From a phage: a stretch of 64,000 nt of DNA. The stretch's first letter is position 1. Each line of letters begins with the position of its first letter. Made by a program: the position numbers and the translations under genes. Below the pieces are notes generated by a model that made no database searches, was not told where the DNA came from, and was given only the letters and a program-made list of their open reading frames with translations. The stretch lies in sequence record PZ445487.1, one strand, 5' to 3'. Below, piece after piece: positions 34,995-40,846 of the stretch.

Positions 34995-35513
34995 TCAAAT
35001 ACTAGTCATATAGAGTGGGACAACCTGCTCAGCGATCAACACGACCTCGGTAATGGTAAAATCACCACCATAAGAGTACAGTTTCATTTGCGCCCCGTTG
35101 GTCGCCAGGTTCCCATCCTTGTCAACGCTGAAGAATGTAATGAAAGACAAAGTGTCCGGCGGCGGTACGCTAGCATCACGACTTCTTGATAACTGGTTCC
35201 CCACAGAACCCACAAAATCTAATATCATGGTTCTATTAGAAGTAGACCCAGACCATGATCCGACAATATTAACCTTCACAGGAAGAATAGAATCATAGGG
35301 AAACGCATGAAATTTGTGATCTGATAATTTAAAGAACGGAGCCAAACCAGTAGGAGAAGAAGGGTTCGGAGTCTTCCCATCCAACACAGTTAACAAATCT
35401 ATTCCAGTTGCCCCAGAAGTTAGAAGTTGTGACAAACCGGAAAATCTGACTTCTGTTTTGATGCGATGGGTCTGAAGCATATTCCCCAAATAGGGAGATA
35501 TCAAAATGGCCAT
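34995..35513 (-). CDS. hypothetical protein (172 aa)
   Basis: ORF track. Confidence 0.5.
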   Translation of the reverse strand: MAILISPYLGNMLQTHRIKTEVRFSGLSQLLTSGATGIDLLTVLDGKTPNPSSPTGLAPFFKLSDHKFHAFPYDSILPVKVNIVGSWSGSTSNRTMILDFVGSVGNQLSRSRDASVPPPDTLSFITFFSVDKDGNLATNGAQMKLYSYGGDFTITEVVLIAEQVVPLYMTSI

Positions 35514-35522
35514 ACTCCCTCC

Positions 35523-35756
35523 TTAAGAAACGATAACCGTCGCATCAGAATTAATTGCCTTAACCCATCCCACCGTCGGCGGGGTTAAAACGACCATATT
35601 TCCTTGATATATGACATGCGCGTTGTTACCCGTTGGAGTGCTGGGGCTATCACACAGATACACAGAACCGTGAGTCACTTGAAGAGTTTTCAAAGATGTG
35701 CCGTCTGAGACTTGCGTCCATGTACTTGCGTTTGGTGTGATCTTAGCAGTTGCCAT
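35523..35756 (-). CDS. hypothetical protein (77 aa)
   Basis: ORF track. Confidence 0.4.
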   Translation of the reverse strand: MATAKITPNASTWTQVSDGTSLKTLQVTHGSVYLCDSPSTPTGNNAHVIYQGNMVVLTPPTVGWVKAINSDATVIVS

Positions 35757-35884
35757 AATAGACCTCCTTTACAAGTCAGATCTATTTATTACAGACAAAA
35801 AGAAACCCGATCATCCTGATCGGGCTATGTTAAACCATCGTGGGGATGGAAAGACTACTCACAGCAATTTCTGATAATGGGCGT

Positions 35885-35913
35885 TGGGAGAGTGCGTCGG
35901 GAATCGAACCCGA
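35885..35913 (-). other. orphan tRNA 3'-module (T-arm tcggg/cccga, 7-nt acceptor strand, no cloverleaf completed)
   Basis: Sense reads ...TCGGG-TTCGATT-CCCGA-CGCACTC-T-CCCA; nearest complementary 5' acceptor strand (GAGTGTG) is about 150 nt upstream at 36034..36040. Confidence 0.3.
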
Positions 35914-36047
35914 AACCGTCAGGACAATGAAAAGCTATTGCATTTCACCTTGCATATCCTCCGGCTTTCTTAACTTCCTTAACCCCAGATTGTTATGAAG
36001 TCGGCATGCACACCTTCTTCATCTTCAGGAAGTCACACTCATTGTTC

Positions 36048-36136
36048 TGGTTGCTTCAACTGGATTCGAACCAGTGACCTCAGGCACCTTGTTCTCTCGA
36101 AACTTTCCTGCGCTCTACCACTCGAGCTATGAAGCA
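36048..36136 (-). tRNA. tRNA-like gene with non-canonical anticodon domain (possible pseudo-tRNA or insertion)
   Basis: Perfect 7-bp acceptor stem (TGCTTCA/TGAAGCA), D-arm GCTC-GAGTGGTA-GAGC, T-arm ACTGG-TTCGAAT-CCAGT and encoded CCA; the anticodon region is a 4-bp stem CAGG/CCTG enclosing 22 nt, and no 5-7-5 anticodon hairpin is found. Confidence 0.4.
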
Positions 36137-36139
36137 ATT

Positions 36140-36228
36140 TGGCGGAAGGTGAAGGATTCGAACCTTCGGGGGCTAAAAGCCCCACTCGATTAGCAGTCGA
36201 GTCCCTTAAACCTCTCGGGCAACCTTCC
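36140..36228 (-). tRNA. tRNA-Ser (anticodon GCU), class II, encoded CCA
   Basis: Hand-folded: acceptor GGAAGGT/ACCTTCC, anticodon arm CTCGA-CTGCTAA-TCGAG, long variable arm TGGGGC-TTTTA-GCCCCC, T-arm GAAGG-TTCGAAT-CCTTC, discriminator G, CCA. Confidence 0.85.
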
Positions 36229-36232
36229 AATT

Positions 36233-36316
36233 TGGAGCGGGAGAACAGGATTCGAACCTGTCCAGTGATCGTCGCCGATGATCAGTCGGCTACTGGCCAA
36301 CCCCTATGGCTCCCGC
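36233..36316 (-). tRNA. tRNA-Ile-like (anticodon GAU), atypical (12-nt variable region, one-nt bulge before acceptor 3' strand)
   Basis: Acceptor GCGGGAG/CTCCCGC (7 bp), anticodon arm GCCGA-CTGATCA-TCGGC (perfect), T-arm ACAGG-TTCGAAT-CCTGT, CCA encoded; D-stem has one A.A mismatch. Confidence 0.45.
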
Positions 36317-36319
36317 GAA

Positions 36320-36930
36320 ATTAGGACGGGCTTCACACCCGATTGTGCATTTGATCTGCCGTAGCCCAACTCCCCGCGCTTATCAGCGCCGATTGGTTAA
36401 CTGGCACCAGTGCCTTCTGGTTCGATCTCCTGGAACTTTACAGGCTTCGCGCCCGACCATTTCTGGAAGTTGGGGCATCGTTTTCGATGTGGAGTCACCC
36501 CATTTTATACACAGCTGGCTGCAACGCTTACTGTGTTTGGTCTACCACCACGTGCTGGGCCACGCTTGAGGACATCGGCCATCCTTCCTCAGCTAATCCA
36601 CGCAGTGATAGATTTGTATCAGAGTGTCCGGTGTAGCTTTCCGTGAGGTGCGCACTACTGTAGCCTCTACACTCTGAATTTGGTGGGCGTTACTTTCGTC
36701 GGGTTCAGATTCCGTTCGGCTATTGGACGTCGCTCGAGAGAACTTGTCGTTCGCGTACTTCGTGCTTACTTGCTTTCGTTTCACACCCATTGTTTGTCGT
36801 CGGGCGGGGGATTCAAACCCCAATCTTTAGTTTGCGTTTCTTCAAAGCTATCATATGTTCACTTTGAATACTAGACTCCCCTGGACATCAAAACAGGATC
36901 TCTATTCCATCCTGCAAGACCCGACATAAT
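36320..36930 (-). other. GC-rich ORF-poor spacer between tRNA genes with a T-arm-like motif (ggggattcaaacccc at 36806..36820)
   Basis: No convincing ORF; only a low-complexity 76-aa frame; candidate stable RNA. Confidence 0.3.
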
Positions 36931-36932
36931 CC

Positions 36933-37008
36933 TGGCGACGACGGCAGGACTTGAACCTGCGACATACGATTTAACAGACCGCCGTTCTACCGACTGAACT
37001 ACATCGTC
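36933..37008 (-). tRNA. tRNA-Asn (anticodon GUU), encoded CCA
   Basis: Hand-folded: acceptor GACGATG/CGTCGTC, D-arm GTTC-AGTCGGTA-GAAC, anticodon arm GCGGT-CTGTTAA-ATCGT, T-arm GCAGG-TTCAAGT-CCTGC, discriminator G, CCA. Confidence 0.8.
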
Positions 37009-37182
37009 TCTATTCTTACTTTCGTAAACATTCTTTATTCTGCATGAAGACCCAGGGCAGGATCATAACGATCGTAAGTTTTTGGATGAGACCCGTTCTT
37101 GATGCTCACCATCCGACCTTCCCAACTAGCGCGAATTCTGTTGGAAATTACCACCCAAATATTCTTCATAATATAGAACCCT

Positions 37183-37383
37183 TCAACTATGTTTATTCGC
37201 TTCGATCGCCCCTAATTGGGCGTCCGCGTCAGCTTTGGTGTCATGTGTCCCAAGAACTTTAGTCTTGGTGTGGTCAAGGACAACCCACTTATCGCCTCGC
37301 TTTTCAACAAACTCAACAATCTCTTTGTTGTCAGTAGCGAGACCATCCCACTCAGTAAGAAACTCACCGAACGTTTTCATCAT
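37183..37383 (-). CDS. small hypothetical protein (about 66 aa) inside the tRNA island
   Basis: ATG 37383/37380 after GGTGAG; CTAAATA-like motif (plus-strand tatttag at 37412..37418) upstream. Confidence 0.3.
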   Translation of the reverse strand: MMKTFGEFLTEWDGLATDNKEIVEFVEKRGDKWVVLDHTKTKVLGTHDTKADADAQLGAIEANKHS

Positions 37384-37420
37384 ACTCACCAATTGTTTAT
37401 TGAACAACTGGTTTATTTAG

Positions 37421-37495
37421 TGGTGACCCTGGCTGGACTTGAACCAGCGACCAATCCCTTATGAGGGGGCTGCTCTACCACTGAGCTACAGGACC
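37421..37495 (-). tRNA. tRNA-Met or tRNA-Ile2 (anticodon CAU), encoded CCA
   Basis: Hand-folded: acceptor GGTCCTG/CAGGGTC (two G.U), D-arm GCTC-AGTGGTA-GAGC, anticodon loop CTCATAA (one C.A mismatch in stem), T-arm GCTGG-TTCAAGT-CCAGC. Confidence 0.7.
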
Positions 37496-37941
37496 TTTTG
37501 TTTCTTCAAATTATCTAACACATGTGGATTGGATTTCAACATCTTCTTCATGTTGGCCTCCTTACTCAGCAATTGTAAATTCCACAATACGCAATTATAC
37601 TTATTTTCATCAACATGATCTATTTCAAACCCTTCTGGGACTAGACCATTAAATGCAACCCAGACAAACCAGTGTAGATATTTCCTGAAATATTTGCCCT
37701 TATATTCTACTTTGATTTGCAAATAACCAGTTCCATTGTCTACGCCCACCAAATATCTTTCAGGTAGTTTTTGTTCATATTCTCCAAACTGATTTTTACG
37801 GCGTATAGTCAGTTCTGGCTTTTTAATTTTTCCATAGTTGCTGACAAATACATGAATGCCAATTTTGTCTAAATACAACTCTTTCCAAATCTCTTCCATA
37901 ACAACTACCCACAGCAATATGAATTTGTTGTGTCCAATCAA
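37486..37941 (-). mobile_element. HNH homing endonuclease gene (free-standing, abutting tRNA-Met)
   Basis: EIDHVDENKYNCVLWNLQLLSKEANMKK is a classic HNH motif; AT-rich relative to surroundings; 3' end overlaps the 5' end of tRNA-Met; start ambiguous (ATG 37899 or alternative start 37941). Confidence 0.55.
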
Positions 37942-38132
37942 GGACTGTCAACCTTTTATCCCGTTTGTGCATGATCAGTTCATGCAGGCCTCTTTGTGCG
38001 CCTCACGGCAACGCGCTTCTGTAGGTCATTGACTTGCACCGTAGTCTCACCACAGGCGTTTATTTTTCCAGGGCTTTCCACTTACAAGTCTTAACCAGAT
38101 CGGGATACGGGCTTGTAAGATCAGATTGGACA

Positions 38133-38210
38133 CAACTTTGATGGCTCTAGGACTAAAGATCCCGCGTCACCCATAGACTTGGTTTATAAAATCTAGAGCC
38201 ATCAAAGTTG
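38133..38210. repeat. perfect 18-bp inverted repeat (caactttgatggctctag / ctagagccatcaaagttg) enclosing 42 nt
   Basis: Seen directly; arms at 38133..38150 and 38193..38210. Confidence 0.7.
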
Positions 38211-38585
38211 CAACCAATGTCGCAACTCGCACTTCAGCGTCTTCGTCTCGCTTCAGCACTTGTCCTCTACGCTCGGACCAAACGAGGCTGGCCGACAGAA
38301 ACATGACACCACTCATCACTAGAGCGAGGATGTGGTTGATAGCCACGATGCTATATCTCTGTCGCAGAGTGATCACACTTGTCAGGATGATCACTGTTTT
38401 GCGAACTTGAAAATACTGCGCCTGTCTCGGGTTTCCCCTTAGTTCGGCCTCTCATTGTTCGTCTAGTCAGGGAGCTACCCTTGATGACCAGCTTATTTTG
38501 AGATCTTCGCCAGCACCCACTAGTGTCTAGAATATGTAGGTGTCGAGGTCTGCAAGGCATTGCCCTATTTCATACAACGCTCTCT

Positions 38586-38730
38586 CAAGTACGCAAATCG
38601 AAGTTCTCTGGGCTTAACAGGTTCGACCCAACATGTTGTATATCGCCTAACTTACTCATGGGACGGCCACTTCTGTGTACAGACCTTGAGGGTTAAAAGA
38701 TATACCCAAAGAACTTCGATTTGCGTTGTG
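38586..38730. repeat. long-range inverted repeat (17-bp core acgcaaatcgaagttct / agaacttcgatttgcgt) enclosing about 100 nt, followed by hairpin gtgggggc-aaa-cccccac
   Basis: Core arms at 38591..38607 and 38710..38726; hairpin at 38728..38745. Confidence 0.6.
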
Positions 38731-38884
38731 GGGGCAAACCCCCACACGGCTACTTCTTTGACAGGGATTGCTAGCCCTGGGGATTCCACTGTTTAAGGCT
38801 TTATCCCATAACGCCCGAGGCGCGTTTTAACTTATTGAAGCTTGCATAACTGCAAACTGATGCGCTGTGAGACACATCTTTGAG

Positions 38885-38992
38885 GGCACTCAGTGTACGA
38901 CAGGCTCCGATATTTCATAGGGCATTACTGCCTCGGATTTAAGTTGCCTTTCTCCTGAAACTCCATACAGTCTCGCGTCTGACGCGGAATGC
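38885..38992. repeat. long-range inverted repeat (atctttgagggca / tgccctcaaagat) enclosing about 82 nt
   Basis: Arms at 38885..38897 and 38980..38992. Confidence 0.55.
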
Positions 38993-39003
38993 CCTCAAAG
39001 ATA

Positions 39004-39031
39004 TGGAGCCGTTTTAGGGAGTCGAACCCAA
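39004..39031 (-). other. orphan tRNA 3'-module with encoded CCA (T-arm TTGGG-TTCGACT-CCCTA, acceptor AAACGGC)
   Basis: No canonical D/anticodon arms within 120 nt upstream; a possible 5' partner GCCGTTA lies at 39121..39127. Confidence 0.3.
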
Positions 39032-39130
39032 ATGCTTGGCCAGCGCTGACCTTACATCCCATCTGACTTAGGCAACCCACCTCTGCTTACTCAGGAGCTT
39101 ATCCCCTTTGGACAGTCAGATATAACGGCT

Positions 39131-39158
39131 TTGGGATTGGAGGAAGGACTCGAACCTT
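39131..39158 (-). other. orphan tRNA 3'-module with encoded CCA (T-arm GAAGG-TTCGAGT-CCTTC, acceptor CTCCAAT)
   Basis: Upstream 41 nt is too short for D plus anticodon arms and no 5-7-5 hairpin is found. Confidence 0.3.
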
Positions 39159-39231
39159 CTCATGTACGCTCCTGATTTCTCAGAAGTAGTCTGCTCCCAT
39201 CGACCTATTAAGTACACGCTCCGCTCATTGT

Positions 39232-39262
39232 CGGCGGGAGATTATTAATCACACCCTCCCGC
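39232..39262. repeat. hairpin ggcgggag-(15 nt)-ctcccgcc
   Basis: 8-bp GC-rich stem seen directly. Confidence 0.5.
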
Positions 39263-39545
39263 CTATTTTAGTGCGCCGAATTTTGTTATGAGGAATCGGA
39301 AGACCTCACTGGTGTATGGCTATTAAGCTACTGCCAGGAACGTGTTATCATTAGCGATTATTTTTGTGGTCAGTTTCTAAAAACCCGCAAAGTCACGCAC
39401 AACGAAAACGAAAACCTGTTTGAGTCCTAAACCTACCTGTCTTGGTCTCACATCGCTATGAGTGGCCAGGACTCAAACAGCTTGCCGTTCAGTGAGTTAA
39501 CTATACTTTGTAACCCGTTATTGATAAAACCTTTTATTTTTGTTG

Positions 39546-39569
39546 ACGAGGGTGTGGAATCGAACCACA
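39546..39569 (-). other. orphan tRNA 3'-module without CCA (T-arm TGTGG-TTCGATT-CCACA)
   Basis: Possible 5' acceptor partner about 100 nt upstream (39644..39650). Confidence 0.25.
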
Positions 39570-40273
39570 CTTCTGAGCGCCACCCCGTGTCACCAATGCA
39601 CCACCTCACCATCGATTTGCCGGAACTTACGCATCCGGCCTCGTCCTGTCGGTGTTCTTCTGAATCCGGGAAGATCAGCAGGAACTATGAATCAAGTTAA
39701 TTCAACCAACAGGAATCCTCTTGTTGCCCTTTGACGCAACATTATGAACCCTCTATGAAGACTCATAATGTTGTCGGCGTGATGGAGATTAGCGCCCCCG
39801 ACCTCCCCTTATATGTTGGTGTCGACTTGCCAACGGGGTGCTCTCGTTTTTCTGAGCTAATCACGCTACAACAGGGAGTTTCGTTCTCCGACGGTCAAGT
39901 GCGTCCACTGACACCAGCGAGGTGGCTATTACGCCTCTATTCACACAAGCCCCTGAGACTAGGGGTTAACTGGTTTTGGGCTGCAAACCCGACTCCCACT
40001 GTGTTATTTCCCTCATGTTTAATACTTTACCGCAGCCCAGCTAATTTGAAAAGTCCTCTCCCCTTTGAGCTACACTGCCCACAGCAGTGCGGACGAACCT
40101 TCACTCAAAACCGGATGCGCCGAAGTGGGCAACTGTTTACCGGACTGATCAGGTAGACCCAGGAGAGAGCAGGTAATCCCGATCAGGAGGATGAGGAGTA
40201 ACATCATGTAAAACATAGTGTTCCCTCCCTTCCATGCAACTAACTTTACTACAATTATTTATTGAATAAAGCG

Positions 40274-40846
40274 TTATTTTACCACTTTTAACTTCACATC
40301 GCGCTCAATCAGATACACATATTCACGGGCGGCGGCCTGTGACATATAATGAGTGGAAGGAGTGCTGTGTTTGTTCAGTGTCTCTTTTAATTCAACGCGC
40401 TCAGCCCACCCATTGATGGAGGTGCCGTAGAAACCGATCACGGCGGCAAAATAAATGTGTTGAGAGCCTGGCTCGACAATATAATTTATCGTGAAGCAAG
40501 TGTCAGAACGGATTGCCTCCAATTTGATTCCAACGCGGGTGATCGGTAAATCATTAGCAACACATAAATGACGAAAGCGGTCACGGCGAGATTGTGTTGA
40601 CTGCATTAATTCACCCATTAGTGTCGCAGTGGCATCGATATTAAAAGAGAATGTCGAAGATGTTTTGAAGTCAGACTTTGCAAGTTCTACCCCAGAAGAA
40701 AGTACACGACGGTAATTGACATCTTTATTTGTCAGACGCTTTATTTCGGTGCGAATTTTCTCAAATGGCACTTCAGACATTACTTTCCCTTCATATTTTT
40801 CTAACAAAGGGATGATATGTTTTAATACAGCAGTGTTGATATGCAT
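40274..40846 (-). CDS. hypothetical protein (190 aa)
   Basis: ORF track; divergent from the late structural module. Confidence 0.5.
   Translation of the reverse strand: MHINTAVLKHIIPLLEKYEGKVMSEVPFEKIRTEIKRLTNKDVNYRRVLSSGVELAKSDFKTSSTFSFNIDATATLMGELMQSTQSRRDRFRHLCVANDLPITRVGIKLEAIRSDTCFTINYIVEPGSQHIYFAAVIGFYGTSINGWAERVELKETLNKHSTPSTHYMSQAAAREYVYLIERDVKLKVVK

Follow-up and report, generated by a model that had tools for sequence, protein, structure and literature searches.

The DNA analyzed here, referred to below as the window, is a stretch of 64,000 nucleotides of phage sequence (record PZ445487.1). The 5 kb around the gene of interest are 100% identical to Escherichia phage CBA120 (JN593240; Kuttervirus, Ackermannviridae), the plus strand of the window being the minus strand of the CBA120 record. 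The gene, CBA120 orf221, lies on the minus strand and runs at its 3' end into a tRNA gene with anticodon CAT. Its product (AEM91905.1) is labeled "putative HNH homing endonuclease" in GenBank, and orf221 has been described as a shortened HNH endonuclease that overlaps a Met tRNA and adjoins an unusual 2 kb gene-free region (Kutter et al., 2011; PMC3184105). Hence the gene, its HNH nature and the tRNA overlap were already known from these two sources. As such genes go, orf221 is an ordinary, well-behaved free-standing homing endonuclease gene, and the only additions made here to the 2011 account are a base-resolution description of the mosaic at this locus and a testable prediction of a target in the tRNA gene. 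The features referred to in the text are as follows.

37421-37495, minus strand: tRNA gene, anticodon CAT, called Met, probably Ile2, chimeric in CBA120 (ARAGORN; Rfam, 60.9 bits)
37455-37457, minus strand: downstream crossover in the 3' strand of the tRNA anticodon stem, leaving a C·A mismatch (CBA120/P01/SFP10 alignment)
37456-37903, minus strand: horizontally acquired tract, Taipeivirus P01-like, containing the HNH gene and the first 40 nt of the tRNA (identity profiles)
37486-37495, minus strand: overlap between the CDS and the tRNA, 10 nt (read directly from the sequence)
37486-37899, minus strand: HNH endonuclease CDS, CBA120 orf221, ATG start, 137 amino acids plus TAG (Pfam HNH_3; AEM91905.1)
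37900-37941, minus strand: 5' leader, a TTG-initiated extension in the ORF of the preliminary description, probably untranslated (not conserved as protein)
37904-37910, minus strand: upstream junction, GGGTAGT, 7 nt, common to the HNH-less L034-type backbone and the P01-type donor
37969-37984, minus strand: anchor motif CATGAACTGATCATGC in the leader (12 of 12 GenBank loci from four genera, and 19 IMG/VR loci)

The preliminary description of this DNA had placed an AT-rich HNH ORF at 37486-37941, with its 3' end overlapping the 5' end of the tRNA by a few nucleotides. An ORF of that extent is present on the minus strand (151 amino acids from a TTG start), but its upstream boundary needs revision, as the conserved start is the ATG at 37899. 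This ATG is common to all alleles, whose proteins begin MEEIWKEL, and is the start annotated in GenBank; the sequence 5' of it diverges among alleles with no conservation at the protein level, and in phage Maynard an in-frame stop stands six codons upstream of the ATG of the orf221 homolog. Based on the shared and annotated ATG and the upstream stop in Maynard, we consider 37900-37941 to be leader rather than coding sequence, and orf221 probably starts at 37899 to give a protein of 137 amino acids. The remainder of that description holds, in that the GC content of orf221 is 0.34-0.35, compared to 0.45-0.50 in the neighboring DNA, and the overlap with the tRNA is 10 nt (37486-37495).

The 3' end of orf221 reads ...CAA AAG GTC CTG TAG, in which GGTCCTG is the 5' acceptor strand of the tRNA. 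The last three sense codons fall within that strand and the TAG stop (37486-37488) corresponds to tRNA bases 8-10. The same overlap is found in Maynard, KpS110, P01 and the metagenome contig L013, even where the sequence of the acceptor stem differs, and every HNH allele that still adjoins a tRNA reads into it and stops at tRNA bases 8-10. Since orf221 has neither a stop codon of its own nor a terminator before the tRNA, the two are probably transcribed together. A promoter and terminator scan around orf221 returned no more sites than shuffled sequence did, and a TTGAAA-18-GATAAT site inside the 3' end of the gene (37539-37510, minus strand) was not significant in the same scan.

The neighboring gene had been taken for a tRNA-Met, an identification that our comparisons do not uphold. 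The Rfam/Infernal hit at 37421-37495 (minus strand) has one non-standard pair flagged in the anticodon stem, and the body of the molecule resembles tRNA-Ile: its best Escherichia coli matches are all annotated as tRNA-Ile (85.5% over the full length in all of the genomes listed), it also matches ileZ of Stx phages and the tRNA-Ile of T4, and the GenBank record of fGh-Ecl02 labels the homologous gene as tRNA-Ile. Judged by these resemblances, the "tRNA-Met" is probably a lysidine-modified tRNA-Ile2 (CAU) that reads AUA. AUA codons, which such a tRNA would read, are not enriched in the AT-rich orf221 (14.5 vs. 11.3 per 1000 codons). The CBA120 tRNA has a C·A mismatch in its anticodon stem, as determined by Infernal, and two G·U pairs in its acceptor stem, and its predicted fold (-24.9 kcal/mol) is less stable than those of the parental types (-27.0 and -30.8 kcal/mol).

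Protein family and predicted active site

The HNH motif noted earlier in orf221 was borne out by profile searches. The protein matches Pfam HNH_3 (PF13392) with an E-value of 3.3e-13 and a score of 49.5 bits against a cut-off of 24.8, covering profile positions 1-45 of 46. HNH_3 was the sole Pfam family matched at E-values up to 0.1, no GIY-YIG domain being found in that search. The best PHROG match is to family 959, "HNH endonuclease" (E 1.5e-27), and is nearly end to end, with residues 14-150 of the 151-residue ORF aligned to profile positions 3-122 of 138; 12 PHROG families were matched in total, 11 of which are annotated as HNH. PHROG 959 and similar short HNH_3 phage proteins, which orf221 matches over nearly its whole length, are annotated by homology only, and we know of no member with a mapped target. 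An exhaustive HMMER search returned 4105 homologous cluster representatives at E-values up to 1e-3, and since many of these are 130-140 residues long, we consider the short architecture to be a common type and not the product of a broken gene.

An AlphaFold2 model built from a 50-sequence alignment had a pLDDT of 95.1 and was used in place of one from five close homologs, for which the pLDDT was 37.8. The best PDB match to this model, as determined by Foldseek, is the homing endonuclease I-HmuI of Bacillus phage SPO1 (1U3E; E 1.1e-5, probability 1.00, 123 columns), with TM scores of 0.62 normalized to the query and 0.50 normalized to the target; this was the only significant match in the PDB, with I-PpoI the next. 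I-HmuI was also the only PDB sequence matched by phmmer, in an alignment that places D94, H95, N107 and N116 of orf221 opposite D74, H75, N87 and N96 of I-HmuI, which we take to be the catalytic and metal-binding residues of its beta-beta-alpha-metal motif, as identified in the 1U3E work. Across 50 homologs H95 and N107 are invariant and N116 is nearly so. Both proteins belong to Pfam HNH_3 with these D/H/N/N residues in register, and the model of orf221 shares with I-HmuI an N-terminal beta-sheet region followed by the beta-beta-alpha-metal HNH core and two helices. On the basis of profile, predicted fold and aligned active-site residues, orf221 belongs to the HNH_3, or I-HmuI-like, family of HNH endonucleases.

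The two proteins differ in several respects. I-HmuI has 174 residues and orf221 has 137, a difference of 37. At the C-terminus, I-HmuI extends 78 residues beyond the last catalytic Asn and carries a helix-turn-helix DNA-binding domain, whereas orf221 ends 21 residues past N116, with only two short helices after the core in the model. A C-terminal helix-turn-helix domain like that of I-HmuI is absent from orf221 in both the phmmer alignment and the model, although membership in Pfam HNH_3 does not require one. Furthermore, I-HmuI is encoded within a group I intron and is a site-specific homing enzyme, while orf221 is free-standing and its nuclease is putative, known here from sequence and a structural model.

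Distribution of the gene and mosaic structure of the locus

Comparison with related phages, proposed earlier as a test of mobility, showed that orf221 is far from universal. The gene is present in about 30 of about 323 related phage records (tblastn at ≥80% identity, and DNA coverage), the 323 being those records of the phage collection that match the locus. The 30 positive records comprise 11 with the CBA120 allele, one with the P01 allele, 15 with the Maynard allele and three KpS110-type Klebsiella phages, and so represent only three or four allele lineages. The close relatives SFP10, BPS3 and moki do not have the gene. A 16-mer anchor scan of IMG/VR found 65 loci, of which we discarded 46 that did not have the extended motif as probable chance matches; three of the remaining 19, which have the conserved leader motif, carry the HNH gene. 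The tblastn and blastn searches of the spacers of HNH-less phages found no decayed HNH remnants. Among four alleles the pairwise dN/dS values are 0.03-0.08 at dS values as high as ~1, and each allele encodes exactly 137 amino acids in an intact frame; based on these ratios, we infer that the protein is under strong purifying selection.

To bring the loci into register across the variable slot that separates leader and tRNA, we used the anchor motif CATGAACTGATCATGC. Measured from this motif, the tRNA lies 485-490 nt away in loci with the HNH gene, and 63-67, 175-177, 255, 282, 377 or 667 nt away in those without it. In the shortest alleles (SKML-39, L040, L065 and L078) the site is empty and the leader directly adjoins the tRNA. 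The alternative contents of the slot number at least seven, none of which encodes a nuclease; they are structured non-coding modules that shift position relative to the tRNA among relatives. The position of the HNH gene, in comparison, is constant, as it occupies the same slot in two genera and one metagenome lineage and keeps a constant register with the tRNA in five diverged alleles. No intron family was found in an Rfam scan of 35700-40400. The gene is free-standing: it is a separate ORF between the non-coding leader and the tRNA, and the empty-site alleles join leader to tRNA directly. An HNH allele about 80% identical to orf221 is also present on a JGI metagenome contig of 922 nt (L014, 317-730), in which the last ~16 residues and the downstream DNA are unrelated and no tRNA follows. 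This represents either a different genomic context for the gene or an assembly chimera.

In CBA120 a tract of 448 bp (37456-37903) is about 95% identical to Klebsiella phage P01, a Taipeivirus. Windows of 100 nt match P01 at 93-98% within the tract and at 52-79% beyond its ends, and the CDS itself is 95.2% identical, while the flanks of the tract are 95-99.5% identical to HNH-less Kutterviruses. Upstream, the flank 38726-37904 aligns at 99.5% identity with the HNH-less Kuttervirus locus L034, and 37904 is precisely the last position of this alignment. P01 has GGGGTAGTTGTTATG directly before its HNH gene, and since the last 7 nt of the CBA120 flank, GGGTAGT, thus also stand before the P01 gene, the upstream junction is one of microhomology. 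An earlier placement of this edge near 38045, from differences to SFP10 and Maynard, was dropped, as the closer HNH-less relative L034 sets it at 37903/37904. Downstream, the CBA120 tRNA follows P01 through base 39 or 40 (...CTCATAAGGG) and beyond that is of the type found in HNH-less SFP10 (ATTGGTCGCTGG...CAGGGTCACCA); below 37455, and past the end of the tRNA, CBA120 is 95-99% identical to SFP10. The tRNA of CBA120 is, therefore, a chimera, its 5' part following P01 and the remainder SFP10.

As judged from these identity profiles, the comparisons show that in the CBA120 lineage a Kuttervirus backbone recently received the HNH gene and tRNA bases 1-40 from a Taipeivirus donor resembling P01, and that this import displaced a hairpin element and a structured element of 102 nt and made the tRNA chimeric. 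The HNH gene of Maynard appears to have a different history: the upstream flank of Maynard is 99-100% identical to that of CBA120, but identity falls to 83% in the HNH gene, and the whole Maynard tRNA is KpS110-like, which points to a separate event.

Two elements of this region were characterized in the relatives. One is a hairpin-closed element of ~113 nt with a perfect stem of 19 nt (ATTCATATTGCTGTGGGTA ... TACCCACAGCAATATGAAT), located upstream of the tRNA in some of these phages, in the spacer of L034 (anchor +60 to +175) and in the spacers of L007-L009; CBA120 retains only its 5' arm (37904-37924), directly before the HNH gene. The other, of ~102 nt (GGGGCGAUAGUUUAAGGGA...CAGACCCCGCCA), has three hairpins, a fold z-score of -4.3 and a tRNA-like 3' end, with a first hairpin that differs among phages while its pairing is kept. 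It was found at L002 3463-3570 (minus strand) and in L003, L006, L007, L008, L010 and L012, and nowhere in the window; it had no Rfam family and no ARAGORN call. HNH-less Kutterviruses and Limestonevirus have it 5' of the tRNA, and Taipeiviruses have it on the 3' side; in Kutterviruses this element and the HNH gene are alternatives in one slot.

The gene had also been suggested as a possible cause of some of the local rearrangement and tRNA debris. It accounts for no more than the 448-bp replacement and the chimeric tRNA: the debris region at 35501-37495 is 95.5% identical and collinear in SFP10, and since it is thus shared with an HNH-less phage, the debris further downstream is not attributable to orf221.

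A second matched pair of filled and empty sites is provided by the HNH-containing metagenome contig L013 and the empty IMG/VR locus L078, whose two flanks are 98.1% and 96.8% identical. In L013 there is a clean insertion of 423 nt located 3 nt upstream of the tRNA; the acceptor stem of this tRNA differs (AGCCCCU), and the ORF enters the tRNA, ending ...YHSAP, with its stop codon at bases 8-10. Downstream, six mismatches separate the pair, and five of these are within tRNA bases 20-41, where they consist of one D-loop change and two anticodon-stem pairs that are compensated. In this pair, as in the CBA120 comparison, the linked substitutions end directly after the anticodon stem. The common "CGA" anticodon stem was present in none of the 29 HNH-containing records checked (of 30) and in 16 of 23 HNH-less loci, although these counts are not independent. 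A Fisher test of stem type against HNH status gave p = 0.0008 on the raw loci, a value on which we do not rely, as the loci are related and include duplicates. As the HNH-containing records represent only three or four lineages, and some HNH-less phages carry these variant stems too, we regard the association between anticodon-stem variants and the HNH gene only as suggestive. The 5' acceptor variant GGTCCTG was considered as an HNH-specific immunity marker and dropped, since it is also found in HNH-less Taipeivirus and Agtrevirus alleles.

Probable homing and alternative explanations

We think it probable that orf221 specifies a minimal I-HmuI-like HNH_3 endonuclease and is itself a homing gene of the free-standing kind, located at the 5' edge of the tRNA(CAU) gene. 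In a mixed infection the putative enzyme would nick or cut alleles that do not have the HNH gene, in or close to the 5' half of the tRNA sequence, and repair templated on the HNH-containing genome would then transfer the HNH gene along with a short stretch of flanking DNA (co-conversion). The compensated anticodon-stem variants, and those of the D-loop, with which the HNH gene is always associated may shield the carrier from its own enzyme. Among the points against this explanation, there are HNH-less phages with the same anticodon-stem variants. Homing is favored by a gene history that conflicts with that of the flanks and by flanking markers that appear to have been co-converted, as in the P01-like tract, the chimeric tRNA and the L013/L078 pair. 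The earlier interpretation of the ORF as a mobile HNH homing endonuclease gene is therefore supported, within the limits of sequence comparison, by the strong profile match, the sporadic distribution and the evident horizontal movement.

Free-standing homing endonucleases had been noted before as inhabitants of the tRNA clusters of T4-like phages. CBA120 is a ViI-like phage (Ackermannviridae) and not T4-like in the strict sense, but the parallel with SegB of T4 is apt. SegB is likewise a free-standing homing endonuclease gene among phage tRNA genes that is missing in close relatives, it carries flanking tRNA sequence with it as it spreads, and the site that it recognizes is in tRNA-gene DNA and includes a conserved tRNA motif (PMC2330249); SegB homologs often adjoin tRNAs (PMC13096335). 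However, SegB is of the GIY-YIG family and orf221 is of the HNH_3 type, and since HNH_3 is the only domain that we detected in orf221, the resemblance is one of genomic context and lifestyle and not of ancestry. In addition, the activity and homing of SegB were established by experiment, whereas for orf221 we infer both, and orf221 physically overlaps its neighboring tRNA, unlike SegB. MobE is a free-standing HNH-type homing endonuclease gene of a large lytic myovirus, and is described as mobilizing itself and flanking DNA (PMC2790892). It sits between nrd genes, while orf221 is at a tRNA, and we liken the two by description rather than by sequence comparison.

The most serious alternative is that the slot is modular and prone to recombination, and that the HNH insert is carried in it as a passenger, moved by general phage recombination and not by site-specific homing, with the protein kept for another role, such as that of a non-specific or exclusion nuclease acting against competitors or host DNA. 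Exchange in the slot does not require the orf221 enzyme, given the nuclease-free fillings of 63-667 nt (at least seven), whose structured modules change position relative to the tRNA, and the left junction in CBA120 is a 7-nt microhomology with no long homologous flank, which is atypical for classical homing. Moreover, without the extra helix-turn-helix DNA-binding domain that I-HmuI has at its C-terminus, the site specificity of orf221 is presumptive. A further point against homing is the small number of independent events documented (three or four allele lineages). General recombination does not, however, readily account for the constant register of the HNH gene with the tRNA in five diverged alleles, nor for the L013/L078 pair, in which a clean insertion is accompanied by a short tract of linked substitutions, as homing produces; the nearest structural relative, I-HmuI, is also a site-specific homing enzyme. 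On balance, we consider carriage as a passenger to be unlikely.

A further possibility is that orf221 is a relic, a decaying and truncated homing endonuclease gene whose enzyme is no longer active, as might be suggested by the term "shortened" in the original paper (PMC3184105) and by its 37 fewer residues than I-HmuI. We regard this as very improbable, since dN/dS is 0.03-0.08 with dS near 1, the frame of 137 amino acids is intact in all alleles, the catalytic residues are kept and proteins of about 135 amino acids are a common architecture in the family. HNH proteins with roles in DNA packaging occur in some other phages, but a terminase-associated or other housekeeping function of this kind can be dismissed almost entirely for orf221, which is of the HNH_3/I-HmuI type, is located in a tRNA region and not beside the terminase, and is missing from about 90% of close relatives, all of them viable phages.

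Returning to homing as the preferred explanation, a more specific version would combine two proposals: that the target is the part of the tRNA-Ile2-like gene encoding the D-loop and the anticodon arm, with the stem variants serving as immunity alleles, and that RNase P acts as a brake on the nuclease. The combination is speculative, and we hold it to be rather doubtful that both parts apply together. If they do, pressure from the endonuclease would make a phage tRNA gene diversify without loss of tRNA function, and the chimera in CBA120, mismatched at C·A, would show the shortest tract for which conversion is required. As for the second part, the reading frame of orf221 is closed only within the tRNA, at bases 8-10, so that RNase P cleavage at the 5' end of the tRNA would remove its last three sense codons and its stop. 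Maturation of the tRNA and synthesis of the endonuclease from one transcript would then be mutually exclusive, the processed mRNA would be a non-stop message, and processing by RNase P would provide a built-in brake on a potentially toxic nuclease.

The locus is a clean natural example of the flow of a homing endonuclease gene between genera, from Taipeivirus to Kuttervirus, with each junction resolved to a few bases (one lies within a tRNA) and a second filled/empty pair available alongside. It therefore offers a test case for the choice of targets in tRNA genes by free-standing HNH endonucleases, for the amount of flanking sequence that moves with them, and for whether they shape the tRNA repertoires of phages, whose tRNAs are now of interest as counter-defense genes (PMC13096335).

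Surroundings of the locus

Upstream of the HNH gene there are about 2.1 kb without a credible ORF (37985-40069), the region already called unusual in 2011 (PMC3184105). Its blocks are 73-97% identical across Kuttervirus, Taipeivirus, Agtrevirus and Limestonevirus, with individual modules present or absent, and it looks like conserved, modular non-coding RNA or DNA. No Rfam family was matched at threshold in this region, which had only weak tmRNA-like matches at 39017-39473. A long inverted repeat at 38125-38218, ~230 nt upstream of the HNH start, has arms of 24-26 nt and a loop of 39-42 nt and is conserved across genera, being found also at L002 3779-3870 and L005 3703-3789. The changes in its arms are compensatory (CTCTAG/CTAGAG in CBA120, CTCTGG/CCAGAG in SFP10 and GATACTG/CAGTGTC in KpS110).

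In P01 the gene-free region contains a match to STnc100 (RF02076; L012 3022-3236), which at 53.6 bits is above the gathering score and was scored in P01 only. STnc100 is a prophage-associated sRNA family otherwise linked to Stx and Fels-type prophages (bioRxiv 10.64898/2026.05.13.724894). The stretch matching this locus is about 190 nt in P01, KpS110, Menlow and FKP14, compared to about 26 nt in CBA120, and STnc100 was absent from the Rfam scan of 35700-40400 in the window at E≤1.

On the other side of the tRNA(CAU) gene, the sequence at 36051-36136 (minus strand) scores 48.7 bits with the Rfam tRNA model and has no ARAGORN call; it is probably the "degenerate tRNA" of the 2011 paper (PMC3184105). 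ARAGORN calls a tRNA-Ile(gat) at 36233-36316 (minus strand), which has no match to the tRNA model and only 23 bits with the tRNA-Sec model. Relatives such as BPS3 carry a tRNA-Tyr inserted near 36051-36316. Just 3' of the tRNA is orf223 (37183-37407, minus strand), a small conserved ORF of PHROG 3684, a family of unknown function (E 5.8e-27). In Limestonevirus Ds9CZ the homolog of orf223 is upstream of the tRNA(CAT) called by ARAGORN, a further sign of the shuffling of modules.
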